From NCBI GenBank assembly GCA_035494575.1, contig DATJGV010000220.1:1-48090 (forward strand): 48,090 bases of DNA. Reading direction: 5' to 3'. The DNA is from Pyrinomonadaceae bacterium. Lineage in GTDB: Bacteria; Acidobacteriota; Blastocatellia; Pyrinomonadales; Pyrinomonadaceae. The notes beneath the pieces were generated by a model. That model searched no databases. It had not been told where the DNA came from and saw nothing but the letters and a program-made list of their open reading frames with translations. Positions within the stretch are counted from its first letter, which is position 1. Every line of letters begins with the position of its first letter. Position numbers and translations under genes: made by a program. Shown piece after piece: positions 2,390-31,272 of the stretch.

Positions 2390-2893
2390 TTATTCAGGCT
2401 TTCGGACTCGTCCGGGAGCTTTTTTCTTTTGATTGTTAACAGGCTGATTCGCCGGCGGTTTGGCCGCGTTCGCCGCGGGTGCAGGCGTCATCGGCGGCGG
2501 ACCGGCATTCGAAGACTTGTTCGAGTTGCCGTAAAGCTGTTCCCACTGCCGTTTGAGCGTTGCTGCATCCGGAATTCCGGGTGTCGGCGTGGCTCCTGGT
2601 TTCTGTGGTTTTTTAGCAGCTTTCGGGTCAGGGATTCCCGGTGCCAGCATGCCATTGTTTGACGGCAGATTGGTTATCGGCGTCGCGCCGGGAATGCTGC
2701 GGGGCGCGTTTGCCGCCGGTATCGGCGACGGCGTGGGAGTTGGCGACGGCTCGCCCGTCACACTTTTGGAACTGTTTTTTACAACCAGATTGGCATTGTT
2801 GCCTAATCCATCGTTTGACGAACTGACCTGCTGACAACCGATACTAAATACCAGCGCCGAGATCGAGATAATGAATAAAAATGTCTTGTTCAT
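2390..2893 (-). CDS. Secreted or lipoprotein-like low-complexity Pro/Ala/Asn-rich protein
   Basis: Track ORF 2390..3022. The likely start is the internal ATG at 2893 (MNKTFLFIISISALVFSIGCQQ, a signal peptide with Cys). The remainder is PTPTPSPIP / PGATPTPGIP low-complexity sequence. Confidence 0.55.
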   Translation of the reverse strand: MNKTFLFIISISALVFSIGCQQVSSSNDGLGNNANLVVKNSSKSVTGEPSPTPTPSPIPAANAPRSIPGATPITNLPSNNGMLAPGIPDPKAAKKPQKPGATPTPGIPDAATLKRQWEQLYGNSNKSSNAGPPPMTPAPAANAAKPPANQPVNNQKKKAPGRVRKPE

Positions 2894-3194
2894 AATTTTA
2901 CTGCTCGTACAATTTAAAATAGCTGTGCCGGCTTGAATGTAGCGTCCCTGGGGGACAGCGACGGCGTTCAAACCGGCACGGGCAGGTATCAAACGGAATT
3001 CGGAAGGTAGTGTAACCGACATGGCTGGCGGCTACTAAATTGTGATTATAGCCCCGTCAGACTTTTTGTCAATGCCGAAATATCCGCTTTTGTTTGAAAC
3101 CCCGACGCCGTGCGGCATTTTCCCGTACGCGATTTGACATCAATTTCTCGCTTATTTAGACTAATTAACTTGCCCTTTTGTTGCACACAATAGA

Positions 3195-3270
<76 letters not shown>

Positions 3271-3286
3271 GAAAAACCAGTAGTTC

Positions 3287-3317
3287 AAGGCCATCCAATC
3301 GGTGGCCTTTTATTTTT
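3287..3317 (+). terminator. Rho-independent terminator after tRNA-Phe
   Basis: AAGGCCA..TGGCCTT stem followed by TTTATTTTTG. Confidence 0.7.
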
Positions 3318-3559
3318 GTTGGTCTCTCGATCGGTTTACCGCACGTTTACAATTTTCAGGGCAGGAGAAGCGAGATAAAACTAAATTTTATTAATTTTGT
3401 GTTTTCATAATTATTCCTCATTTCCCTTTCTCAGCCGATTTGGTTTATGATGGTCTTCTCAATTGTTTCGCTTTACAAGCAAGTTTTCTATTCTTTGGGC
3501 CAGCTTGGACTTGGTCTCTTTTACACGTAAGGTTCAACGGCTCGGTCGTATAATTGTCG

Positions 3560-6268
3560 ATGAAGAGAATCGTCCTACTGACAACATTGCTGTTGTGCGC
3601 CTTTTGCGTGTACGCGAATTCACAGAATTCAACTACACCCACTCGCTGGACAACGGATGATATCGTATTGGCTGAGCAGGCATCGTCATTTGAGATATCG
3701 CCAAATGGCCGATTATTGGTATGGGTGAAGACTGTTCCTGAAAAGGACAAAGATCGCAGCGTTTCGAATCTGTTTCTGACCGACCTCATTGAAAACAAAG
3801 AGGTACAGCTGACACGCGGTAATGAAAGCAGCTCCTCACCAAAATGGTCATCCACCGGAAAGTACATATCATTTCTAACCTCAAGGCAAACCGGCAAATC
3901 TGGCGATGCAGCCGGTGCAGCGTCCACACAGTTATGGTTAATAAATCCGTCCGGAGGCGAACCTTGGCCGATAACATCATTTACTCGTGAGATTTCTGAT
4001 TACGAATGGGTGGATGACAATACTTTGATCTTCTCAGCGCGCGAAGAGCCATCCTTGTATGAAAGCTCAGTAAAAAGCAAAGACAATTCGATTGTGATCG
4101 AAGACGAAGAGCACGAACCGCCGCTGCGTTTATTCAGATATAAGATTTCAACTAAACAAGTAACCCGTTTGACCGCCAATACCGACCGTATTACCGATTT
4201 TGCATTGTCACCGGATGGACTTCATGTCGTGACAATACATGAACAAAGTCTGAGGTACGAGTACGACAATCGTGATAAGCCACTGGTTTTTCTCTATGAC
4301 CTGAAGAGCGGTGAGCGAGAGCAAATTTTTAACGATAAGGAATTCAATCTTCGGGCGATTCGGTGGGCAAAGGATGGAAAAGGCTTTTATGTTTCCAGCA
4401 GTTTCAAGCCCGATCCTAAGTACCTATGGGCGACGCGGATCCAGATCTATTATTACGATCTTGGAGCCCGCATTCCGCAAAAGGTCAATCTCGACTGGGA
4501 AAGAGGCTTATCCGGTGGATTTGTTACAACCGACGACGGATTCGTTGTTTTGCTCGCCAACGGAGCCAGAAATAAGCTTGCTCACTTTGTACGTGATGGC
4601 AATTCGTGGCGTCGCGAATTCATAACGGGCGATCACGCTGAGAATATATTCGGATTTAATATTGGCAAGGATGGTAAAACCCTTGTTTACAATTATTCGA
4701 CCCCGAGCATTCCAACTCAGTGGTATTACGGACGGCTCGATGAAAACCGCATCAATTCACCGCTACAGATAACAAGACTTAATAAGCGCCTCGAAGACAA
4801 GCAGATCGCACGCACCGAACTGATGCACTGGAAAGGCGCCTTGGACGAACAGGTCGAAGGCATTCTGTATTACCCTCACAATTACAAACCGGAACAAAAA
4901 TATCCCCTTGTTGTAATGATTCATGGCGGGCCGACCTTGGTTGATTATGACGCTTGGCGCGAGACGGCAAATTATCCGCATAATTTGTACAACCAGCGCG
5001 GAGCGTTCGTTCTTGCTCCGAATTATCATGGCAGCTCAAACTATGGCTTAAAGTGGGCCGAATCCATTGGAAAGGGAAACTATTACGATCTGGAAGTTCC
5101 CGATATCGAAAAAGGCGTCGATTACCTTATCAGCCGAGGCATGGTCGACCCGGACAAGCTTGGCGTCCTTGGCTGGTCGAACGGCTCTCTTCTAACGATA
5201 GCGCTTACAACTTTTACTACGCGCTACAAGGCCGCTGGCGCTGGCGCGGGTGTAGTAGATTGGACGAGCGATTGGGCCACGGCGTATTTCGGGGCGTCAT
5301 TTGACAATTACTATTTCGGCGCATCCCCACTAGAAGATCCACAGCGCTACTTCACAAAATCGCCATTTTATAAACTCGACCGCGTTAGAACGCCCACGAT
5401 TATCTTCTTTGGCGAAAATGATCCGACGGTTTCGCCAAGTCAAGGCTGGATGCACTACCGCGCCCTGCAACAGCTTGGAAAAACCGATGTCAGATTCGTG
5501 ATATTTCCTGGTGAACGTCACGTCCCGCAAAAAATCAGCCATCAACGAAGAAAGATCGAGGAAGAACTCGCTTGGTTCGAAAAATATCTGTTTAAAACGT
5601 ATAAGCCGGAGAATGAGGCATTAAAGACCGGCTCGCCGTTGGCCGAAGCTCTGAAACTTAAGAACGTACCGCGCGACCTCGGCCGCTACGGCATTATAAG
5701 CAGCGCGAAACTGATTCCGGAAACTGTTAATTATAAGGGCATGCGAATAGGCCGTTTCGAAGTCACACGCGCACAATTTGCGCAATTTGACAAGAGCTAC
5801 AAGTATGCCGCCGGAACTGATAATTTTCCGGCGAACGATGTCACCTTTCAACAGGCAAAAGATTACATAGCGTGGCTTTCCGAGGCCACGGGCTCGCGTT
5901 ACCGACTCGTTACCGAAGCCGAAGCCAAAGACATTTACGACGTCGATGCAGGGGGTGAGAATACCCTCGATCGCTGGGCAGGTTATTCAATAAATCCTGA
6001 TGATGCCGTGCGTCTTGAACCGATCATCGAAGAACTCGGGGCAGGTGCTCCTTTGCTGAAAGAGGTTGGCAGTTTTACGGGGCGCGGATCGGATGAACTC
6101 GTGTTCGATCTTGGCGGCAATGTTGCTGAGTGGGTACTTTCTACAAATAATTCCGGCCGCGCGTATGGAGGCAGCGCCGATATGCCATCCGACCCAAAGA
6201 TCCCTGATCGAAAGCCGGCACCTCAATATATAGGTTTTCGCGTTGTAAAAGAAATCGGCGGAAAATAA
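3560..6268 (+). CDS. Exported S9-family serine peptidase (beta-propeller plus alpha/beta hydrolase) fused to a C-terminal FGE/SUMF1-like domain
   Basis: The track start at 3554 is TTG; the ATG at 3560 gives signal peptide MKRIVLLTTLLLCAFCVYANSQ. S9 features: GWSNGS nucleophile elbow and FPGERHV. The C-terminal ~190 aa carries FGE-like motifs: RIGRFEVTRAQF, NFPANDVTFQQAKDY, YRLVTEAEAK, GGNVAEWV, IGFRVVKE. Confidence 0.85.
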   Translation: MKRIVLLTTLLLCAFCVYANSQNSTTPTRWTTDDIVLAEQASSFEISPNGRLLVWVKTVPEKDKDRSVSNLFLTDLIENKEVQLTRGNESSSSPKWSSTGKYISFLTSRQTGKSGDAAGAASTQLWLINPSGGEPWPITSFTREISDYEWVDDNTLIFSAREEPSLYESSVKSKDNSIVIEDEEHEPPLRLFRYKISTKQVTRLTANTDRITDFALSPDGLHVVTIHEQSLRYEYDNRDKPLVFLYDLKSGEREQIFNDKEFNLRAIRWAKDGKGFYVSSSFKPDPKYLWATRIQIYYYDLGARIPQKVNLDWERGLSGGFVTTDDGFVVLLANGARNKLAHFVRDGNSWRREFITGDHAENIFGFNIGKDGKTLVYNYSTPSIPTQWYYGRLDENRINSPLQITRLNKRLEDKQIARTELMHWKGALDEQVEGILYYPHNYKPEQKYPLVVMIHGGPTLVDYDAWRETANYPHNLYNQRGAFVLAPNYHGSSNYGLKWAESIGKGNYYDLEVPDIEKGVDYLISRGMVDPDKLGVLGWSNGSLLTIALTTFTTRYKAAGAGAGVVDWTSDWATAYFGASFDNYYFGASPLEDPQRYFTKSPFYKLDRVRTPTIIFFGENDPTVSPSQGWMHYRALQQLGKTDVRFVIFPGERHVPQKISHQRRKIEEELAWFEKYLFKTYKPENEALKTGSPLAEALKLKNVPRDLGRYGIISSAKLIPETVNYKGMRIGRFEVTRAQFAQFDKSYKYAAGTDNFPANDVTFQQAKDYIAWLSEATGSRYRLVTEAEAKDIYDVDAGGENTLDRWAGYSINPDDAVRLEPIIEELGAGAPLLKEVGSFTGRGSDELVFDLGGNVAEWVLSTNNSGRAYGGSADMPSDPKIPDRKPAPQYIGFRVVKEIGGK

Positions 6269-19883: not shown

Positions 19884-20705
19884 ATGAATCTTGCATTTCT
19901 TGTTTCCCTTTGTCTTATTTTTTTAACGATCTCAATCTCCGCCCAGAACTCGGACATTGTTTCGACACGGGAGATGGAGCGCATCAACTGGATGGAATTC
20001 AAAGAGGTGGTTCCATCCAAAATAACAACCGTGCTGCTGCCGACCGGCACTCTCGAACCGCACGGTGTTATCAATAACGGGGCCGACAACACCGCTCCGT
20101 TCGCCATGGCGAAAACCATTGCCAAACGTACGAACGCGATGATCTCCCCGACGCTGCCCTACGGCATCACCGGCGCCATGGAGGCTTACCCCGGCGCGTT
20201 TCAGATAACTGAAGTCGCATATCGCCCGTTCGTAAAACAAATTCTCGAAGGCCTCGCCAAAAACGGATTTCGAAACATCATAATCCTTAACGGCCACGGC
20301 GGCGGGCAGACGGCCGTTTTGCAATCGGTCGCCGCTGAGGTTGCAACTGAACGGCATGTCCGTACGCTTGTTATAAATTGGTGGTCGTTTGCGTCCGACG
20401 AAACCAAAGAAGTCTTTGGCGAAGACGGCGGTCATGCCGGGTTGAACGAGACCGCGTTCATTCAGGCGATCGACCCGACCCTGGTCCATGCTGACCGTTA
20501 CAACCCCGACATGGCTACGGCATATCCCGCGCCCGGCACATGGAGCGCGACGCCTTTTCCGTCGTCGATCGGCCTGTATCAAAAAGGCCAGGGCTATCCG
20601 AAATTCGATCAGAAAAAGGCGGATGAATACTACAAAAAGGTGACCGACAAAGTCGCTAATCTGATCACGGACACAGTTCGCAAGTGGGACATGGCCGGGC
20701 TGTAA
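19884..20705 (+). CDS. Creatininase-family amidohydrolase with N-terminal signal peptide
   Basis: Motifs LPTGTLEPHG, ISPTLPYGIT, IIILNGHGGG and GGHAGLNET. The N-terminus is MNLAFLVSLCLIFLTISISAQ. Confidence 0.8.
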   Translation: MNLAFLVSLCLIFLTISISAQNSDIVSTREMERINWMEFKEVVPSKITTVLLPTGTLEPHGVINNGADNTAPFAMAKTIAKRTNAMISPTLPYGITGAMEAYPGAFQITEVAYRPFVKQILEGLAKNGFRNIIILNGHGGGQTAVLQSVAAEVATERHVRTLVINWWSFASDETKEVFGEDGGHAGLNETAFIQAIDPTLVHADRYNPDMATAYPAPGTWSATPFPSSIGLYQKGQGYPKFDQKKADEYYKKVTDKVANLITDTVRKWDMAGL

Positions 20706-21677: not shown

Positions 21678-22280
21678 ATGAAAGACGCCATCGAACCCAA
21701 AACCACCCGCGAAGCCATACTCGACGCCACTGACCGTTTGCTCGCGCGGTACGGCTACAAGAAAATGACCATCGACGACCTCGCTCGCGAAGTCGGCATC
21801 GGTAAAGGCAGCATTTACCTGCATTTCGCAAGTAAAGAAGAAATTGCGCTGACCCACATTGACCGCATTATCGACCGGCTTAGAAAGCGCCTTTCGATCA
21901 TCGCGAAGGACAGCGTTGCCTGCGACGAGCGAATTCGCCGAATGCTCGTTGAACGTGTGATCTTTCGATTTGACAGTGTTCAGCATTACACGCAAAACCT
22001 CAACGACATGCTCGCCCGGCTACGTCCGCAGCTGCTCGAACGCCGCAAGGTGTACTTCGAAGAGGAAGCCAAAATATTTGCGCGGGTCATAGACGAAGCG
22101 CAGCAGAAAAACGACTTCATAAAGACTGACTCGATGGACACGGCCCGAACGCTGCTCGCTGCGACTAATGCGCTGCTGCCGTATAGCTTGAGCACGCAGG
22201 AGCTCGGCAAACGCAGCGATATAGAAAAAAGAACACGTGCGATCGCCGATCTTGTGATCGACGGCCTGAAACAAAGGTGA
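21678..22280 (+). CDS. TetR/AcrR-family transcriptional regulator
   Basis: N-terminal HTH: REAILDATDRLLARYGYKKMTIDDLAREVGIGKGSIYLHF. Confidence 0.85.
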   Translation: MKDAIEPKTTREAILDATDRLLARYGYKKMTIDDLAREVGIGKGSIYLHFASKEEIALTHIDRIIDRLRKRLSIIAKDSVACDERIRRMLVERVIFRFDSVQHYTQNLNDMLARLRPQLLERRKVYFEEEAKIFARVIDEAQQKNDFIKTDSMDTARTLLAATNALLPYSLSTQELGKRSDIEKRTRAIADLVIDGLKQR

Positions 22281-22330
22281 CAATTGTAATTTCTAAAACG
22301 ATCTATTCCCATCATAAAAGGAGCACCACA

Positions 22331-23422
22331 ATGAAATCATTAACCATCATTTTTCTCATTCTTTCATCATTCATCTACATCTCAGCCCAAGGCCCGGCGC
22401 CGCAAAATCAGCCTGATGCGGCCATCGATTCGACAACGAAAACGCAGGTCATCGACAGCATTTTGAAATCGCTGAACGACGAGTACGTCTTTCCTGAGAC
22501 CGCAAAAAAGATGGAAGCGGACATACGGGCTCGTCAGAAAAACAACGAGTACGATCAAACGACCGCACGAGCTTTTGCCGATAAGCTGACAGCCGATCTT
22601 CAGTCCGTCAGCCATGACAAGCACCTTCGCGTCCGCTATTCGGACCGCGTTATTCCAGTTCGTCAGAATCAGGAGGAGCCGACCGATGCCGAAAAGGCCG
22701 AAGAGGCTCACTACGTCAAATTCATGAATGCCGGATTCGAACAGGTCGAACGCATGCGCGGCAACATCGGCTACATACGGTTCAACGGTTTTGTCGATCC
22801 CGAAAAAGGCGCTGAGACGGTCCAGTCGGCAATGAATTTCGTTGCCAACACCGACGCGTTGATCTTTGACCTGCGCGGCAACGGCGGAGGCGACCCGGCG
22901 ATGGTACGGCTGATCTGTTCTTACTTGTTCGGCGACAAACCGGTCCATCTCAACGATCTATATTGGAGAAAAGGCGACCGCACCGAGGAATTTTGGACGA
23001 CGCCGACTGTTGCGGGCAAGAAATATCTCGACAAGGACATCTATGTTCTGACCAGCAACCGCACGTTTTCCGGAGCCGAGGAATTTAGCTACAACCTCAA
23101 GAACCTGAAACGCGCGACGATCGTCGGGGAAACGACCGGCGGAGGAGCGAACCCCGGCGATTTTGTACGCTTGACCGATCATTTCGGAGCGTTCGTCCCC
23201 GGCGGCCGCGCGATCAACCCGATCACCAAAACCAACTGGGAAGGCACCGGCGTCGAACCCGACGTCAAAGTCCCGCGTGACCAGGCCCTGAAAACCGCCT
23301 ACCTGCTCGCTCTGAACAAAGCCCTCGTCAATGCCAAGGACGACGGCCTGAAACAAGCAATCAAAGAAGTGATCGACCAGACCCAGAAAGAGCTGGACGA
23401 ACTGAAAGCCAAGAGCAAATAA
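22331..23422 (+). CDS. Exported S41-family peptidase (tail-specific / IRBP-like)
   Basis: ATG at 22331 lies behind AAGGAG and gives signal peptide MKSLTIIFLILSSFIYISAQ. Motifs GYIRFNGF, LIFDLRGNGGGD and TSNRTFSGAEEF..IVGETTGGGANP. Confidence 0.83.
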   Translation: MKSLTIIFLILSSFIYISAQGPAPQNQPDAAIDSTTKTQVIDSILKSLNDEYVFPETAKKMEADIRARQKNNEYDQTTARAFADKLTADLQSVSHDKHLRVRYSDRVIPVRQNQEEPTDAEKAEEAHYVKFMNAGFEQVERMRGNIGYIRFNGFVDPEKGAETVQSAMNFVANTDALIFDLRGNGGGDPAMVRLICSYLFGDKPVHLNDLYWRKGDRTEEFWTTPTVAGKKYLDKDIYVLTSNRTFSGAEEFSYNLKNLKRATIVGETTGGGANPGDFVRLTDHFGAFVPGGRAINPITKTNWEGTGVEPDVKVPRDQALKTAYLLALNKALVNAKDDGLKQAIKEVIDQTQKELDELKAKSK

Positions 23423-23533
23423 CCCTCGCCTTGGAATTCGCAATTAATTTCCGGAATAGCGGATAACTGGGAGTGTATAACTGATAGCTGTTTGTCTTCG
23501 GTTATTGGTTTTCAGTTAGAGTTATTCCGGCCT

Positions 23534-23578
23534 TGTCCCAACCGTGTCCCAGGACTGTCCCAAGCCTATTTGGGACAG
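23534..23578. repeat. Three TGTCCCA direct repeats at exact 11-bp spacing plus one inverted copy
   Basis: TGTCCCA at 23534, 23545 and 23556; TGGGACA at 23571..23577. CTGTCCCAA (23555..23563) and TTGGGACAG (23570..23578) form a perfect 9-bp inverted repeat. Confidence 0.8.
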
Positions 23579-23964
23579 GCAAATAGCCGATAACAATACG
23601 CTTACTGGGTTTTCCACAGGCATTTTTGCGCGAGTTTAAAAAGTTTGTGCCACAAAATGCTAAGTTACTGGACCTGAAGCCTTTATCCAATTAAGTGCGA
23701 CTTTAGCGTGCGGGACACCGATCGCGATTCTCTACCAGATCTGCCTTACGATCTTTCCTGAATTTTCAAAGACCAATCATCGTTCCACGCAGGCTTCCGC
23801 CGAAGCCCGCAAGAACCGGCATAAAATTCTAGCGCGCTTTGCAAAGATAGTAAAGATTTTTATGTATGATACAAGGGTGAGTATCGATAGTCGCGGTCCA
23901 CTTCTTTATATGGCATTTTGGACTAGAGAAAGTCTTTACCTAACCGTTTCCGAAAATTTACGCG

Positions 23965-26469
23965 TTAATTGTTGGGTGGCGTGTAAGCCGAAAATAAGGA
24001 TTGAATTTCGTCGGCTGACAGCGCCCGATTAAAGAAATAAATCTCGTCAAGCGCTCCGGAGAAAAATTGCCTGCTTCCTGAACTCAAGGCGCCAAATTCC
24101 AAATTCGATGAATTAGATAGATCAGTCGGAACCCTTTCCGGTGTAGTCGACCGCAAAACTCCATCGATATAAAGATACAGTACGTTTGATTGCCTTACAG
24201 CAGCGATATGATACCAAATCCCGACCTGAAAATTTGACTTCGGATATCTGGCATCATTGTCGCTAGTTTGAACGATGTTTCGAGTTTCGACCCCAATCCC
24301 GCCAATTTCATCACAAAAATCACAGATATTAAACAGCCACCCATTGTAAGAACCTTGATCCCCATAGTTATCTTTATGAACCATACCGTTTGTATTGTTT
24401 TCTAAATTATCAAACATTGCAAAGAATGTGATCGTGAAATCGCCAGTTCCGACATTTAAGTTGGATGAATTCGGAACGGATACTCGGCCGTCCACACCAT
24501 CGAAGCTGAATGCCTGACCCGAAACGCCAGGCTTATAAGTGGCGCCATTGAGCAGTTCGCCATCGTTGCCACCGAGTAGATCGTACGCGTTACCGTCGGC
24601 CGGCCAATAACTTACGGGCCCGCTCTGCAGGCTGTCAGATAGCGGAATCTTTGTCACTGCTACGTAAGCCCCCGTTGAGTCGCTGTTAAAGCCGTTGCCG
24701 CCGTAGCCGACCGAGAAATCGACCGTATCCCCTGCGGCTAACTCACGGGAAAGAACAAAGGCTTTCGGTATGCCAAATCCGTTAATATTTTCGTTGAATA
24801 AGACTAATTTAGAATTGAGCACAATTACTGCATCGGTAGTTGTTCCGCTGAGGTCGATTCCTTGAAAATGACCGTCGAATCTATACACTCCCTTTGCGGG
24901 GGCTGTCCATCGCAGGACACTCCGCTGCCCTTCCTTTCCCGGATGCAGATCTAATAGATCAGGCGGTAGAAAGACGCCTCCAGCCGTTATCGCAGTATCG
25001 CTGGAGTTGTGCGTTATCAATGGGTGCGGCGAATCCTGGTTTTGCCATTTATCAATTGGCATTCCCGTAATCTTGAAGTAGCGGTCATGGTCTGATGACG
25101 TAAATAAAGAGAACAAAGAGATATCGTCTGATGGGGTGTAACCGTAGGACCAGTTACCGCTCGGATTTGACGTAATGGAAAAGTCTGTAACGGCGTTCTC
25201 GGTGAAGCCGATCGGCGGTTTTGCTGGATTCGATTTCGTAAGTTGAAGAAATACAAGCATCGACAAAACCGCAATTCCTAAGATCAAGATTGCTTTGATA
25301 AGGTTTGCTTGTAAGTATCGTCCAAACCCACTCAGAAGACTGCCAGACCGAAGCTCAGAAGCCGATTGCCTCCGAGCATCCGACATTTCTCTTATTTTTG
25401 TAAGGTCGTTAAGCATGTCGTCGATATTTCCGTATCGGCCCGACTTCTCTTTGGAAAGAGCGAATGCGATGATGGTGTCAAGTTCCGCCTGAAATGGGAG
25501 GCGGAGATTTCTAATCGGTTCTGGTGACGACATCAGGACCGCCGCGATCTGATCGATCTTCGTCAAGCCTCTAAAAGGTAGCTCCCCGGACACCATTTCG
25601 TAAAGGAGAACACCGAGGCTCCAGATGTCGGTTTGGGTACCTACTTCGGAGCCGCGGATCTGTTCCGGTGACATATATGCGGGAGTGCCGACCAGCGCAC
25701 CGAGCTCAGTGCTCATATCCACCGTTAGTTTAACGTTTTCGCCACCTTGAATATGAATAGTTCCGTCGCCGATCGGACTGACCAGCTTTGCCAATCCAAA
25801 ATCCAAAACCTTTATGGCTCCGTTGGGTGTGATGACGATGTTTTCCGGCTTGATATCCCGGTGGACGACCCCAGCGGTGTGTGCCGCGCCGAGCGCCGAC
25901 GCGATCTGGATAACTATATCAATAGCCTCCCCCAACGGGATCGATACGGCTAAGTGTTTTCTAAGGTTAATGCCTTCAACAAACTCCATGACGATGAGAT
26001 TTTCACCGTCGATCTCGCATACCTCATACAATTTGGCGACGTTTGGATGCACAACTCGTGACACCGCCTTCGCTTCTTTGCGAAAACGTCTTATCCGTTC
26101 AGGATCGAGGGCGAATAGCTTGTTTAAGAGTTTGACGGCGACCTTGCGTCCAAGCTTCTGGTCCTCGGCCGCATATACTTCGCCCATTCCGCCACGGCCT
26201 ATTAACCTCCCTAACTTGAAATGGCCAATAGTCTCACCAGTCCGTTTATCAACGTCGTTTCCGTCCAACATTTGTACGCCAATGTCAAAAACCGGCGTAT
26301 CCAAGCTTGTAGACGGAGATTCATGCTCCGCCAGCAACGCTCTGATCTCGGAGAGCATCGCTTCGTCGCCCAGGCAATTGTCCCGCAGAAAATTTTCGCG
26401 CGCCGGGCCGTGAAATTCGGCAGCAGCGAAAAAAATCTCCTCTATTTTTTGCCAGCGTTCTTTTTGCAT
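23965..26469 (-). CDS. Transmembrane Ser/Thr protein kinase with extracytoplasmic LamG-like (concanavalin-type) domain
   Basis: The track start at 26478 is TTG; ATG at 26469 gives MQKERWQKIEEIF. Kinase motifs GRGGMGEVY, VAVKLL, HRDIKPENI, DFGLAK and GTPAYMSPEQ. One TM helix (AILILGIAVLSMLVFL). The C-terminal segment has a LamG-like signature: FSGALDEIYFFNRALSADEIQ. Confidence 0.88.
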   Translation of the reverse strand: MQKERWQKIEEIFFAAAEFHGPARENFLRDNCLGDEAMLSEIRALLAEHESPSTSLDTPVFDIGVQMLDGNDVDKRTGETIGHFKLGRLIGRGGMGEVYAAEDQKLGRKVAVKLLNKLFALDPERIRRFRKEAKAVSRVVHPNVAKLYEVCEIDGENLIVMEFVEGINLRKHLAVSIPLGEAIDIVIQIASALGAAHTAGVVHRDIKPENIVITPNGAIKVLDFGLAKLVSPIGDGTIHIQGGENVKLTVDMSTELGALVGTPAYMSPEQIRGSEVGTQTDIWSLGVLLYEMVSGELPFRGLTKIDQIAAVLMSSPEPIRNLRLPFQAELDTIIAFALSKEKSGRYGNIDDMLNDLTKIREMSDARRQSASELRSGSLLSGFGRYLQANLIKAILILGIAVLSMLVFLQLTKSNPAKPPIGFTENAVTDFSITSNPSGNWSYGYTPSDDISLFSLFTSSDHDRYFKITGMPIDKWQNQDSPHPLITHNSSDTAITAGGVFLPPDLLDLHPGKEGQRSVLRWTAPAKGVYRFDGHFQGIDLSGTTTDAVIVLNSKLVLFNENINGFGIPKAFVLSRELAAGDTVDFSVGYGGNGFNSDSTGAYVAVTKIPLSDSLQSGPVSYWPADGNAYDLLGGNDGELLNGATYKPGVSGQAFSFDGVDGRVSVPNSSNLNVGTGDFTITFFAMFDNLENNTNGMVHKDNYGDQGSYNGWLFNICDFCDEIGGIGVETRNIVQTSDNDARYPKSNFQVGIWYHIAAVRQSNVLYLYIDGVLRSTTPERVPTDLSNSSNLEFGALSSGSRQFFSGALDEIYFFNRALSADEIQSLFSAYTPPNN

Positions 26470-26488
26470 CGACGGCAACTCGAAAGCC

Positions 26489-27052
26489 TTATTTTCTCAT
26501 TTGGCGGGCAAGCCACGCTCGTGCCAGGTTCCAATGTCGCGTAACCGCGGCAGGGGTCATATTTAACACCTCGGCCACCTCGGTTGTGGTAAGCCCGCCA
26601 AAATACCGCATCTCCACTATTCTTGCCTTGACCATGTCAAAATTAGAAAGACACGTCAATGCCTCGTCAAGGGAGATTAGTTCTGTGGTTTTTTCCGTAG
26701 AAATTATTTCCACGTCGTCAATATTCAAAACGAAGGCACCACCAGCCCGCTTGCCCGTCATTCGGTCCCGGGCATGGTTCATCAAAATCCGGCGAATAAT
26801 GATCGAAGAGACCGCAAAAAAATGACTTTGGTTTTTCCATTGCACATCGCGTTGACCTATAAGCCTCATGTAGGCTTCGTTAATAAGATCGGATGTCATG
26901 AATGAGTGGTTTGCATTTTCCCGCTTCAAAAACCGCCGGGCGATTCGCTTAAGTTCGGACTCAACAAGCGGAACGAGGCGTTCCAAAGAAACCTCGTCCC
27001 CATTGCTCCACGCTACTAACAATTCTGTAATTTGTTCCTCAGTTTCGACCAT
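26489..27052 (-). CDS. ECF-type sigma-70 factor of the kinase-associated subgroup
   Basis: The N-terminal ITELLVAWSNGDEVSLERLVPLV..ELKRIARRFL is typical of the ECF group found next to Ser/Thr kinases. Region 2 (LINEAYMRL) and region 4 (MRYFGGLTTTEVAEVLNMTPAAVTRHW) are present. No anti-sigma gene is adjacent. Confidence 0.88.
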   Translation of the reverse strand: MVETEEQITELLVAWSNGDEVSLERLVPLVESELKRIARRFLKRENANHSFMTSDLINEAYMRLIGQRDVQWKNQSHFFAVSSIIIRRILMNHARDRMTGKRAGGAFVLNIDDVEIISTEKTTELISLDEALTCLSNFDMVKARIVEMRYFGGLTTTEVAEVLNMTPAAVTRHWNLARAWLARQMRK

Positions 27053-27360
27053 ACAGGCTTACCGGCTACGCCTGACTTAAGACTAATATTCCAACTGCTG
27101 TGAGAATAGACCACAATTGCGAAAATAAAAAGATAAATTCTAATAATTTTCGGGCGTATGCATAGTAGAACGAAAGAATTTTAAATATGATGTGTCTGCG
27201 GATTTCGTGAACCAAGTTATTTTTATCGTGATGTAGTCCTGTTACCCTGTTTTACCGAACAATTTAATATGGCGTTTCCGATTGAATTCCTTAATCGGAA
27301 GATACCTATATATCATCCCACGATTCATTTAGCCTCACCCACGGCGTATTGGAGATTAAA

Positions 27361-28647
27361 ATGAAACGCAATGTTCTCACCCTCTTCGCTGTATCGATCT
27401 TCCTCGTCTTTTTATCGGCAACGGCCACTTTTTCACAGACCTGTCCCGGCGGCGCGGGATGTCTCGATCCGACATTCGGTATAGGCGGCATAAGCACGAC
27501 TTATGTTCCGGCAACTAAACCGCTTACTTCGGGAAAGGGCGCAATACAGAGTGACGGCAAGATCCTTGCGATGAAATTGGTTTTGCCGGGCGACAGTTTT
27601 ACCAATGCCGTTATCCGTTACAATCCGGATGGAACGCTTGATCCTTCATTTGGCAGTGGAGGAATCGTTAGCCTGAACTGGCTCAATGGCCATGCGTATG
27701 TTATTGCCGTCCAAACCGTCGGAACCGAAGAACGGATCGTCGTCGCAGGTACAGGAACGGGCTATACTTCGAGTCTTCGTATTGACCGCTTTCATCCTGA
27801 CGGCAGCCCGGATCTATCGTTTGGCAGCGGCGGAACCGTAAGTATTACTGCCGGCGCACCGCAGGCAATAGCCGTGCAGCCTGACGGCAAAATAGTGACG
27901 ATGGGCACGGCCGGGGCGTTGGTTCGTCTGAACCCAAACGGAACGCTGGACGGCACATTCGGCAGTCACGGTTTCATTCAGAATAATACCTGGCGGGTTC
28001 AATCAATTGCGCTTCAGTCAGATGGGAGGATCGTTGCTGCCGGTTATTGGACGGACGTTCACGGCGCCAATTTGATGTCTGTTTGGCGGTTCAACACAAA
28101 TGGCTCGTTGGACGACGGCGGAAAAAATGACTCGACGAAGGGCGATTCGTTCGGCATTAAAGGGCAAGCGACCATAGATTCTTTCAATCCCGCCTGGGAC
28201 GTCAAAATTGACCCCAGCGGCAAGATCGTTGTCGCTGGTTCGGCGAGTTCAGTTTCCACCGTTTTTGCTGTTGCGAGGCTAACGTCTGCTGGACAACTCG
28301 ATTCGACATTTGGTGTTGGCGGAAAAGCGACGGTTGATTTCAGTGGATTAGGTGACCAGGCGAGAAGCGTATTGCTTAGATCAAACGGTCAGATCATTCT
28401 CGTCGGCCTCGTATCAACGTCAACCCATGGTTATGCCGGTTTGGCCCGTTTCAACTCAAACGGCTCGCTCGATACTGCTTTCGGACAAAGTGGTAAGGTC
28501 GTAACCGATTTTTCAAGCGAAGGGTGGTTTTTCAGTGGCGGATTGATTCAGATGGACCCGATATGCGGCTGTGAAAAGCTTATCGCGCCCGGAACGGTGA
28601 TAACCGGCGGGATATATTACGCTTTCGCGGCGCGTTATATTCTCTAG
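27361..28647 (+). CDS. Secreted delta-60 repeat (beta-propeller) protein
   Basis: The track start at 27349 is TTG. ATG at 27361 sits 6 nt after GGAG and gives signal MKRNVLTLFAVSIFLVFLSATATFSQ. A motif recurs roughly every 50-60 aa: LDPTFGIGGI, LDPSFGSGGI, PDLSFGSGGT, LDGTFGSHGF, LDSTFGVGGK, LDTAFGQSGK. Confidence 0.75.
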   Translation: MKRNVLTLFAVSIFLVFLSATATFSQTCPGGAGCLDPTFGIGGISTTYVPATKPLTSGKGAIQSDGKILAMKLVLPGDSFTNAVIRYNPDGTLDPSFGSGGIVSLNWLNGHAYVIAVQTVGTEERIVVAGTGTGYTSSLRIDRFHPDGSPDLSFGSGGTVSITAGAPQAIAVQPDGKIVTMGTAGALVRLNPNGTLDGTFGSHGFIQNNTWRVQSIALQSDGRIVAAGYWTDVHGANLMSVWRFNTNGSLDDGGKNDSTKGDSFGIKGQATIDSFNPAWDVKIDPSGKIVVAGSASSVSTVFAVARLTSAGQLDSTFGVGGKATVDFSGLGDQARSVLLRSNGQIILVGLVSTSTHGYAGLARFNSNGSLDTAFGQSGKVVTDFSSEGWFFSGGLIQMDPICGCEKLIAPGTVITGGIYYAFAARYIL

Positions 28648-28827
28648 GTTTTTCTAATACTTTCTCATTTTTTTAGCAAGAGAAAGGTTTGGTGATCGAA
28701 AGTGCCATAGAGGTTTTTTTGATCGCTATAGACAAAGGCAATTACTTTTCCTCACCAGTCTCCATATCGCTAACAAACGCGATATGGAGACGAATTTTCA
28801 GGGCGCGTCGCCAAGGGCGACATGCGA

Positions 28828-28917
28828 ATTCCGCATTCTTATCTTTTCCAATAATTCTTTATCTTCAGATCGAGCATCGGGAATGCGCAGTATTCGACGG
28901 AGCGGCCTGATTCGCGG
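28828..28917 (-). repeat. Orphan copy of the 3' end (last 25 codons, stop and short 3' flank) of the cREC-like gene; left direct repeat of the TA cassette
   Basis: 28838..28917 matches 29845..29924 at 78 of 80 positions. On the reverse strand it reads RESGRSVEYCAFPMLDLKIKNYWKR-stop, identical in amino acids to the live gene end. Confidence 0.9.
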
Positions 28918-28939
28918 GTCTCGCTAATGCAAATTTTCG

Positions 28940-29452
28940 TCATCCCAAATTTTCCCGAATATCTTTAACACTTAGCATCAAGTGAAGCGGATGGATCGGT
29001 GACTCTTCAAAACCAAACTTTTCATAGAAGCTCTTAGCCTCTTCATTTTTTGCGTGAGTGAGCATCGCGCGGAGACCGGCAATATCAGCGGCCTGAAGCG
29101 TGCGCAGCACTGCATCTCGCAAGAGCCCCTTGCCCAGGCCTTTGCCTTTCTCTCTTACGTCCACGGCCAAGCGCGCTAAAAGAATTATGGGTATTGGATA
29201 CAGAGGCAGGTCGGCTTTAATCTTATCAGTTGCCTCGTCGTGCGAAACCGAGCCAAAGGCCAGAGTATAGTAACCCACGACATGGCCCTCGCGGGTTGTG
29301 ACGTACGTTCGCGAAATTTCGTTTTCCTGGTTGGCAAGGGCGTATTTTTTGATGAATCTATTAAGCGCAGGTTCGCCGCACGCGAATGTCGATGCATCGT
29401 GTTCGGCGGTCAGTAGCTGCGGGGGAGTGTACAGGACTCTACTTGCCATCAA
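28940..29452 (-). CDS. GNAT-family acetyltransferase toxin (TacT-like)
   Basis: 170 aa with an acetyl-CoA-binding stretch RLAVDVREKGKGLGKGLL. It overlaps the upstream DUF1778 gene by 14 nt, which is the classic TacA/TacT arrangement. Confidence 0.82.
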   Translation of the reverse strand: MMASRVLYTPPQLLTAEHDASTFACGEPALNRFIKKYALANQENEISRTYVTTREGHVVGYYTLAFGSVSHDEATDKIKADLPLYPIPIILLARLAVDVREKGKGLGKGLLRDAVLRTLQAADIAGLRAMLTHAKNEEAKSFYEKFGFEESPIHPLHLMLSVKDIRENLG

Positions 29453-29723
29453 AGACGCTGCGTTCGGTCAAAAGTTTTCTGAGGGCGGGAATTTTGCGCG
29501 GTGGAGCATCCAAAGCGGCCAAAAAACGCTTCCACTGCTTTCTATCCAGGATAAAATTTGCGTCGTCGGCCAAAACCGCCTCCGCTGCCGACAGAGCGTT
29601 TTCCAGCACAAAATCGCTTATATTCTTGTTTTCCCTTTCAGCCGCCTTCGCAATAATGGTTTTTCTTTCGGGAGTCGTACGTATGCTCAACCGTTCTTCT
29701 CTTGTTTGTTTTACCGCAACCAT
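29439..29723 (-). CDS. DUF1778 ribbon-helix-helix antitoxin (TacA-like)
   Basis: 94 aa. Sequence runs EERLSIRTTPERKTIIAKAAERENKNISDFVLENALSAAEAVLAD..FILDRKQWKRFLAALDAPP. Confidence 0.82.
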   Translation of the reverse strand: MVAVKQTREERLSIRTTPERKTIIAKAAERENKNISDFVLENALSAAEAVLADDANFILDRKQWKRFLAALDAPPRKIPALRKLLTERSVFDGK

Positions 29724-29765
29724 GATTTAACCTCTCTATTCATGTACACATCTTGTACGCACAAC

Positions 29766-29784
29766 GTGCACACACTGTGTGCAC
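29766..29784. promoter_or_regulatory. 19-bp perfect palindrome upstream of the antitoxin gene (candidate TA operator)
   Basis: GTGCACACA-C-TGTGTGCAC lies 43 nt upstream of the tacA-like ATG. It is flanked by direct GCACAAC repeats and TGTACA palindromes. Confidence 0.5.
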
Positions 29785-29833
29785 AACATATGATGCAAAA
29801 TATCCCCATAATTTGCAATAAAAATTTACCGAC

Positions 29834-29924
29834 ATTCCGATGCTCTTATCTTTTCCAATAGTTTTTTATCTTCAGATCGAGCATCGGGAATGCGCAGTAT
29901 TCGACGGAGCGGCCTGATTCGCGG
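29834..29924 (-). repeat. Right direct repeat of the TA cassette, which is the functional 3' end of the cREC-like gene
   Basis: See 28828..28917. The offset between copies is 1007 bp. Confidence 0.9.
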
Positions 29925-30304
29925 AGTTTCATTACCATTGGGATGGCGGCGTCGGCGTTTCGGGTGTGGACGATGATGGTCGCGGCGCGCTGAAGGTCCG
30001 ATTTTTCGTTTAGCCATTCGGCGACGGCGTAGCCGGTCCGGTCGAAATCGTCGTGCTCGTTCGATTCGTAATGGTGCGGGAGCAGGTCATGATCGAGAAA
30101 GATCGCGTCGTAGGCCGTATCGCTTAAATATTCCTTGGCCTTTTCGACTGTGTCGGCAATGTCGAGGTCATCGCCCGCAAAACGCTTCTTGAACCATTTG
30201 TGACGGCGTTCGTCATCGTCGAGTAAAAAAACCGCGATCGGGTTTCGTTCCGCCCTGAGGTCAATGAGGCCAAGCCTCAACATAATACTGCGAAAAATGC
30301 TCAT
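29846..30304 (-). CDS. Stand-alone receiver-fold protein resembling the cREC (cyclic-phosphate processing receiver) family
   Basis: The track start at 30310 is GTG; ATG is at 30304. Receiver-like beta1 VFLLDDDERR, beta3 AIFLDHDL and beta4 IIVHTRN (DHD and H-T/S-x-N motifs as I recall them for cREC). The canonical beta5 Lys is absent. TGYAVAEWL helix present. There is no output domain. Confidence 0.55.
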   Translation of the reverse strand: MSIFRSIMLRLGLIDLRAERNPIAVFLLDDDERRHKWFKKRFAGDDLDIADTVEKAKEYLSDTAYDAIFLDHDLLPHHYESNEHDDFDRTGYAVAEWLNEKSDLQRAATIIVHTRNADAAIPMVMKLRESGRSVEYCAFPMLDLKIKNYWKR

Positions 30305-30495
30305 ATACACATCTGGGGAACGCTTAATATAACATAAACAAAGATGAATTATACCTTCGGCGGGTTGCGAGTGCAGAATCGATTTTAAGCACAGCTGTCA
30401 GCTATTCGCCATCAGCGGTTAGCCATTTAACAAACTATGTGACCTCCTAGACTTCCCCGTTTGTCCGAACTATAATCCAACCAGCCCGCGAAACA

Positions 30496-31272
30496 ATGCC
30501 AAGAGAAAAATCACAAACTCATAAACTGAAGATCGTTCCCGAACCGCCGCCGGCGATCGAGGACGCGTCGGACCTTTGCCCGAAATGTTTCGGCACCGGA
30601 CTCGAGATCGTGCCCGGCAAAGGCGCTCGGCCGTGCGAATGTCGAAAAAAACTGGCTCACACGAACCATCTCGAAAAAATGCGGCTGCCCCGCCGCTATA
30701 CCGAATGCCATTTTCATAACTACCGTCCGCAAAATCCTTCGCAGGAACGAGCTCTTTCGTTCTCGACAAAACTAGCGATGGAATATCCGGCGGTCGAACG
30801 CGGATTGCTATTTTCCGGAACGGTCGGGGTCGGCAAAACGCATCTTGCGGTTTCTATTTTAAAGGGCTTGACGGAACGCGGATTTACGTGCCTGTTTTAC
30901 GAATTTGGCGCGTTGCTAAAAGAGATTCAAGATTCCTACAACGCCAACACGCAAACTTCTGAATTGCGTGTGCTCGCTCCGGTTTTTGACGCCGATGTTT
31001 TGGTTCTCGACGAACTCGGCGCGTCAAAACCAACCGACTGGGTGCGTGACACGATGGCTCATATCATCAACACCCGTTATAACGACCGAAAAGTGACGAT
31101 CTTTACGACCAATTACCTCGATGACCGTACTAGTGCCCGCGAAGAAACTCTCGAAGACCGCATCGGCGTCCGTCTCAGGTCAAGACTTTTTGAAATGTGC
31201 AAGACAGTTTTTATTGCCGGCGAAGATTTTCGAAAAACGTTCGACCGGAGTTCGGCCGCGAAAAGCCGATAG
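30496..31272 (+). CDS. DnaC/DnaI/IstB-like AAA+ ATPase with N-terminal zinc ribbon
   Basis: [16 protein letters not shown] (four Cys), Walker [12 protein letters not shown], Walker B VLVLDELG and TTNY sensor. No IstA-type transposase is adjacent. Confidence 0.78.

Follow-up and report, generated by a model that had tools for sequence, protein, structure and literature searches.

We describe a small toxin-antitoxin cassette, tacAT, in a 48,090-nt stretch of DNA from an uncultured soil acidobacterium (Pyrinomonadaceae bacterium, assembly GCA_035494575.1, contig DATJGV010000220.1, positions 1–48,090), referred to here as the window. The cassette lies between a gene encoding a cREC_REC protein (hereafter cREC) and a convergent DUF5122 gene, and is bracketed by two direct repeats, of which one forms the 3' end of cREC and the other is an orphan copy of that gene end on the far side of the cassette (Table 1). 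The repeats, the fate of the gene end and the distribution of the cassette among contigs of the same species are described below, followed by the ways in which such a unit might have been inserted.

Table 1. Features of the cREC-tacAT locus, in window coordinates
Feature	Position	Strand	Remarks
cREC_REC gene, 154 aa from GTG at 30310 (gene callers: ATG at 30304, 152 aa)	29846..30310	-	PF20274, E 2.7e-14; target gene
Live (right) repeat copy	29844..29924	-	AAA AAC variant; four informative positions invariant across all occupied contigs
Cassette head, 120 nt, cREC stop region to tacA start	29724..29843	-	GTGCAC/TGTACA palindromes; first 12–14 nt weakly like the native post-stop sequence
tacA antitoxin gene, 94 aa, DUF1778/TacA1, ribbon-helix-helix type	29439..29723	-	PF08681, E 8.7e-24
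tacT-like GNAT toxin gene, 169–170 aa	28940..29452	-	GNAT Pfam matches; solved-structure matches
Cassette tail, 22 nt, tacT stop to orphan repeat	28918..28939	-	from the sequence
Orphan (left) repeat copy	28837..28917	-	AAG AAT variant; same sequence as the single copy at empty sites; population-polymorphic (28899 T and 28884 C in L051, L145 and L152)
Presence/absence unit, 1007 bp	28918..29924	-	one of several equivalent indel placements inside the repeat; alignment of 10–14 same-species contigs
Native cREC 3' region, three hairpins including a 13-bp stem	28750..28836	-	fold z-score -3.7; between the convergent cREC and DUF5122 genes

The insert measures 926 bp without the repeat, contains tacAT as its only genes and has a G+C content of 48.5% (vs 51.8% for the genome). 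An earlier annotation made from the nucleotide sequence without database searches (the sequence-only reading) had described it as an insert of about 1 kb that holds an addiction module and no integrase, and this description holds. The antitoxin gene lies directly upstream of the toxin gene in the same orientation and overlaps it by 14 nt. A phmmer comparison of the toxin with the PDB returned best matches including 5fvj (E 4e-33), 7ak7/7ak8 and 6g96, at roughly E 1e-33 to 1e-35, and weaker matches to 6gts/6ajn and 5zgn. The last of these was deposited as KacT; the other structures we take to be members of the TacT/AtaT group. By its Pfam and PDB matches the protein is a GNAT toxin of the TacT/AtaT/KacT-related fold, and its motifs FYEKFGF and GKGLG align with the solved relatives. 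The locus resembles TacAT, AtaRT and KacAT in its overlapping operon with the antitoxin, here of the DUF1778/TacA1 type, in first place, and in a toxin that is 35–45% alignable to the solved members, but differs from them in that its cassette clade is confined to Pyrinomonadaceae-like soil assemblies, with relatives of at most 78% amino-acid identity. As judged from these similarities, tacAT is predicted to be a TacAT-type type II toxin-antitoxin system, with acetylation of aminoacyl-tRNA by the toxin and neutralisation by the antitoxin as its predicted activities. Nested GTGCAC/TGTACA palindromes occur upstream of tacA (approximately 29741–29790), and similar ones precede the tacA homologues of two metagenome loci described below (L068, L091); this region is likely the tacAT promoter/operator, putatively conserved in the TacA clade. 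The predicted fold of the cassette head was no different from that of shuffled sequences, and the head had no match among 190 congeners. PADLOC gave no meaningful defence-system match for cREC or tacAT.

A repeat search of the window gave a single strong direct-repeat family for this region, with copies of 81 nt that are identical at 79 positions (98%) and 1007 bp apart from start to start; the sequence-only reading had recognized the same pair and offset, with a length of 80 nt. As it had stated, the two mismatches (28854/29861 and 28857/29864) fall on third codon positions of the minus strand (AAG/AAA, Lys; AAT/AAC, Asn). Either copy translates as RESGRSVEYCAFPMLDLKIKNYWKR followed by a stop. 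The roles that it assigned to the copies are likewise borne out: the right copy holds the final 25 codons of cREC with their TAA stop and two more bases, and the left copy is an orphan that starts 22 nt past the tacT stop. The search for further copies that it had recommended yielded these two alone in the 3.2-Mb genome assembly (363 contigs, 82% complete). A widespread intergenic repeat family is ruled out by this number and by all other matches in the genus being the end of a single cREC gene. The inner boundary of the repeat is abrupt, in line with the earlier description. Beyond the shared TAAGA, 12–14 nt more align with three gaps between the cassette side, which reads GAGCATCGGAATG after the stop of the live copy, and the native side, and 10 of 300 shuffles equal this alignment. 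The alignment suggests a residual resemblance of the two sides, which would weakly favour an incoming, slightly diverged homologous gene end over a fresh fill-in duplication.

The gene into whose end the cassette is set occurs as one copy in 181 of the 190 other species of the genus; the closest protein among them is 82% identical. Its C-terminal 27 residues are near-invariant, but every other species examined uses codons for them that depart from those of the window at 10 or more of the 81 positions. Both repeat copies carry the codon choices of the species itself (e.g. TCC for Ser, and AGA TAA at the end), which indicates that the extra copy is derived from a conspecific or nearly identical genome and not from a foreign element. 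No second cREC end was found in the 190 other species, the additional matches in G156 and G165 being contig-edge fragments, and none of these species has tacAT at the cREC site. DNA similar to tacAT (64–72% identity) is present in 11 of them, in each case on a different contig from cREC or far away from it, and has no flanking repeats.

Contigs of the same species were found by exact look-up of the cREC, TacA, TacT and DUF5122 proteins in public assemblies, and their junctions were then classified. Among the matches listed, with similar places collapsed, at least three contigs carry an empty site (L043, L044, L049), at least ten are occupied with both junctions, at least eight are occupied but partial, and one is ambiguous in its junction state, numbers that do not represent allele frequencies. 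In alignments, what the empty sites lack is exactly positions 28918–29924 (1007 bp). Otherwise, L044 and the window differ at only three places in about 3.9 kb of shared sequence. The tacAT unit is thus a precise presence/absence polymorphism within the species. One sample of the Joint Genome Institute (3300026116) contained both the empty contig L043 and an occupied fragment, L063. The sequence-only reading had proposed to look for an empty site in close relatives, and had named a duplicated arrangement with no unoccupied site and no polymorphism as evidence against itself; the empty site was found in the species itself and coexists with the occupied allele. The structure was assembled identically and independently in at least ten metagenomes from two sources and is therefore not an assembly artefact. 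The exact TacA and TacT proteins occur, among the matches listed, in the cREC-tacAT-DUF5122 context only.

Contig L063 (Ga0207674_10597680) has a peculiarity of its own. It is 100% identical to window positions 29897–29062 and then, after approximately TacT residue 130, continues into 230 nt (837–1066) for which neither the genome nor any fetched locus had a match. Either the contig is chimeric or tacT carries a second insertion in that sample.

All three empty sites have the AAG AAT version of the gene end, followed directly by the native post-stop sequence with its three hairpins, from which the cassette separates cREC in the window. Because the copy at the empty site matches the orphan, it is the native gene end with its terminator-like hairpins that has been displaced by about 1 kb downstream, and cREC stays intact. 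The live copy is AAA AAC in every occupied contig and probably came in with the cassette. A donor with tacAT after cREC and no duplication was not found among the species representatives or the listed metagenome contigs.

The cassette is present on several single-nucleotide polymorphism (SNP) backgrounds, and the SNP blocks are mosaic between contigs, so that homologous exchange appears to be frequent in the population. At repeat positions 19, 34, 60 and 63, the live copies of all occupied contigs have the same bases. The orphan copies come in two forms at positions 19/34, C/A and T/C, and C/C is found in the empty contig L049. In the cREC frame, neither orphan polymorphism changes the amino acid, and one of them also occurs in an empty-site allele. 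Since only 20–26% of random substitutions in this sequence would be synonymous, the polymorphisms probably arose in live gene ends and were carried into the orphans either by gene flow out of empty-site alleles or through repeated loss and regain. The L049 allele could have come from an L051-type locus by deletion between the repeats, with a crossover that fell between positions 19 and 34; a simple mutational series fits it equally well.

The 1007-bp unit is precise, the live gene end is non-native, and no recombinase is encoded in or near the insert. We favour, at a probability of roughly 60%, a recombinase-free insertion with long target duplication, in which recombination within the repeat accounts for both gain and loss of the unit. 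The tacAT cassette (promoter/operator, antitoxin and GNAT toxin; 926 bp) would have entered with an 81-nt conspecific copy of the gene end. One reciprocal (Campbell-type) exchange would have joined this DNA to the resident gene end, with the crossover in the first 59 nt (upstream of position 60). The reverse recombination between the 81-nt repeats would remove the cassette and leave a scarless gene. Both states would move among conspecific backgrounds by DNA uptake and host homologous recombination, and native-end alleles flowing in this manner between empty sites and orphans would be expected to leave the pattern described above, i.e. orphan SNPs that are synonymous, one of them common to an empty-site allele. 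Post-segregational killing by TacT/TacA would penalise loss of the cassette and help to explain the predominance of occupied contigs. The initial duplication would have been an illegitimate event, for which a staggered break with fill-in, template switching and one-sided homology-facilitated joining are candidates.

This mode of insertion is known from restriction-modification units, which are inserted with repeats of > 30 bp, carry no mobility genes and have empty sites in conspecifics (Furuta, Abe & Kobayashi 2010, PMC2853133); it was termed insertion with long target duplication (Nobusato et al. 2000, as cited in PMC2853133). The repeats of these units often span a start or stop codon, which leaves the target gene intact, and a 'virus-like' cycle of invasion, amplification and release has been proposed for them, although it is undemonstrated (PMC2853133). 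The cREC-tacAT locus is a variant of this mode with toxin-antitoxin cargo in a soil acidobacterium. It shares with the restriction-modification units a small addiction-type insert (926 bp and no mobility gene, against an upper size limit of 20 kb in the definition), a repeat that exceeds 30 bp, spans the stop codon, aligns to a single copy at the empty site of three conspecific contigs and has two copies in the genome, i.e. is not multi-copy. It differs in its cargo, which is a type II toxin-antitoxin pair instead of a restriction and a modification gene (a requirement that in PMC2853133 served as an operational search criterion and not a mechanistic one), in its host, an uncultured soil acidobacterium, and in the evidence, which comes from metagenome populations. 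It also differs in that the two copies are not identical, which points to an incoming replacement end and not to a simple duplication. The literature searched contained nothing that links insertion with long target duplication to toxin-antitoxin cargo.

How chromosomal toxin-antitoxin modules spread without a transposase or integrase is poorly understood, and the locus offers a clean natural example, in which the four silent repeat sites serve as internal markers of where recombination occurred. If our reading is right, the locus adds a GNAT/DUF1778 addiction module from an uncultured soil phylum to the restriction-modification genes for which insertion with long target duplication was known, and it supports the view that the host's own recombination suffices for moving small selfish cassettes without disrupting the target gene. 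The co-occurrence of both states in single soil samples would make the proposed virus-like cycle directly testable at this locus. For annotation, it is a warning that short orphan gene ends beside toxin-antitoxin pairs may be insertion scars and not paralogue pseudogenes.

Several points weigh against recombinase-free insertion. The model leaves the origin of the first duplication unexplained, and both differences between the copies could date from after a true target duplication, as substitutions in the live copy that selection kept synonymous. SNPs of the background type occur at positions 19 and 34 in orphans and never in live copies; independent integrations would need crossovers within the first 18 nt, which is more like a site-specific core than a RecA-type exchange. 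The junction of the tacT tail through the repeat to the head sequence GAGCATCGG, which would mark a circle or tandem array, was present in none of 27 fetched loci. With the assembly at 82% completeness, a trans-acting recombinase may be unassembled. Metagenome contigs are, moreover, consensus sequences and possibly strain chimeras, which weakens arguments from haplotypes. A speculative and rather doubtful generalization is that minimal toxin-antitoxin cassettes form a class of recombinase-free mobile units, which would each lie between long duplicates of the host sequence at their landing site (a gene end here, a group II intron start or a tRNA-like fragment elsewhere), excise as small circles through the repeats, spread as free DNA among conspecifics, re-enter by Campbell-type recombination and be retained through their toxins.

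A scan for bracketing repeats covered 48 metagenome loci with TacAT homologues and adequate flanks. Long direct repeats bracket the cassette at two further independent loci. In L068, L071, L072 and L073 (approximately 2530–3643), a cassette with 62% toxin identity lies between repeats of 54–77 nt that resemble a tRNA 3' half (minus strand), and ARAGORN detected no intact tRNA in these four contigs. In L091 (1125–2228), the cassette (toxin identity 53%) is flanked on each side by a perfect 68-nt copy of a group II intron 5' end (GTGCG...), the intron itself being recognized by Rfam RF02005 at 2197–2432. Size-matched control windows from the same loci were positive in 3 of 174 cases, all of them overlapping these cassettes, and in 0 of 171 elsewhere. 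Such cassettes between long repeats of other targets count in favour of the recombinase-free model. Conserved terminal sequences, such as attC-like sites or inverted repeats, were not found across the related cassettes, which share operator-like palindromes only.

The sequence-only reading took the layout for the footprint expected of an element that integrates into the 3' end of a gene with its own copy of that end, as tRNA-targeting islands do. Integration into a gene end stands, in the form of a discrete 1007-bp unit, empty sites in the same species and a non-native end beside the gene body. The analogy with tRNA islands fits less well: the insert has no integrase or remnant of one and no room for it, with only 119–120 nt before tacA and 22 nt after tacT, none of the 190 congeners has an occupant, the repeat is conspecific, and the ends are not conserved. 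A cognate integrase elsewhere in the genome, which had been suggested as a check, was not apparent; the 82%-complete assembly contains one Phage_integrase (Xer-like) match, on contig C270, and no resolvase. The cREC end as a general attachment site of islands is not supported either, as none of 190 species has a second copy. An integrase-driven, tRNA-island-like origin is, overall, partly supported.

On a rival explanation, the insert would be a non-autonomous, cis-mobilisable mini-element, with the 81-nt repeats as attL and attR and a tyrosine or serine recombinase acting in trans from a parent island or as host Xer; a 1-kb circle would go in and out at a core within CCGCGAATCAGGCCGCTC, close to the repeat's 5' edge. 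We regard it as unlikely. It would explain the precise boundaries and scarless empty sites, and the uniformity of live copies at positions 19, 34, 60 and 63 beside orphans that vary like empty alleles fits a crossover within the first 18 nt; the incompleteness of the genome assembly leaves space for a recombinase. Cis-mobilisable elements (CIMEs) that descend from the integrative and conjugative elements of Streptococcus thermophilus are likewise flanked by att sites, lack recombination genes of their own and reside in the 3' end of a protein-coding gene, where they coexist with related integrase-bearing elements at the same site. The locus resembles them as recombinase-less flanked DNA in a gene 3' end, but differs in that no parent element was found, be it as an integrase-bearing relative at the same site or as a second cREC end in the 190 congeners. 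The closest integrase-driven analogue of the footprint is the insertion of e14 and phage 21 in icd of E. coli, where, as recounted in PMC13626634 (after Hill et al. 1989), the element supplies a new gene end whose differences are mostly synonymous, the original end becomes the orphan icdC, and excision recombines both. The cREC locus has the same arrangement, with an element in the 3' end of a protein-coding gene, an element-borne end with silent differences (AAA AAC vs AAG AAT) and a native orphan on the far side. By that account, the e14 prophage measures 15 kb, encodes an integrase of its own and excises site-specifically upon SOS induction, whereas the insert here is 1 kb, consists of tacAT only and encodes no recombinase. 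Against the mini-element speak, besides the absence of an integrase from the insert and its flanks and the single Phage_integrase match in the assembly, that the repeat is conspecific and not a conserved attP, that the related cassettes sit at unrelated targets without conserved ends, and that no dif-like arrangement was apparent in the repeat by inspection, no formal scan having been run.

A remnant of a larger island or prophage, attached at the cREC 3' end and later deleted except for tacAT, is improbable. Islands are commonly stabilised by toxin-antitoxin modules, and what lies downstream of cREC varies within the genus, both of which would suit a remnant. The deletion would, however, have had to stop 22 nt past tacT, exactly at the edge of the orphan, without leaving a pseudogene; no longer version is present in 21 same-species contigs (among the matches listed) or in any congener, and the G+C content of the insert is near that of the genome. 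A true target-site duplication, in which breaks staggered by 81 nt were filled in and the live copy gained two substitutions later, is an equally improbable origin. In its favour, it is the original sense of 'long target duplication' (PMC2853133), both copies are conspecific, and substitutions in a live end would be expected to be synonymous. Against it, both fixed changes lie in the copy under constraint and none in the free orphan, the reverse of the neutral expectation, and the weak gapped similarity past the repeat on the cassette side better suits a diverged homologous end.

The surroundings of cREC differ in their conservation. Upstream, cREC is divergent from a gene for a DnaC/IstB-like ATPase in 19 of 19 same-genus relatives examined; in the window this gene (30496–31272, plus strand) encodes an AAA+ ATPase with an N-terminal CxxC...CxC motif and has no IstA partner. 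The downstream region is variable across the genus (window 23423–28836 vs L004–L022). No third, decayed copy of the repeat was found at the far side of the species-specific block there (23423–23964). In relatives, homologues of the window genes at 22277–23422, 21678–22280 or 19884–20705 converge straight onto cREC. The species-specific extra DNA amounts to about 6.4 kb and encodes a Ser/Thr kinase with a Laminin_G_3 domain (23965–26478), an extracytoplasmic function sigma factor (26489–27052) and the DUF5122 beta-propeller protein (27349–28647).

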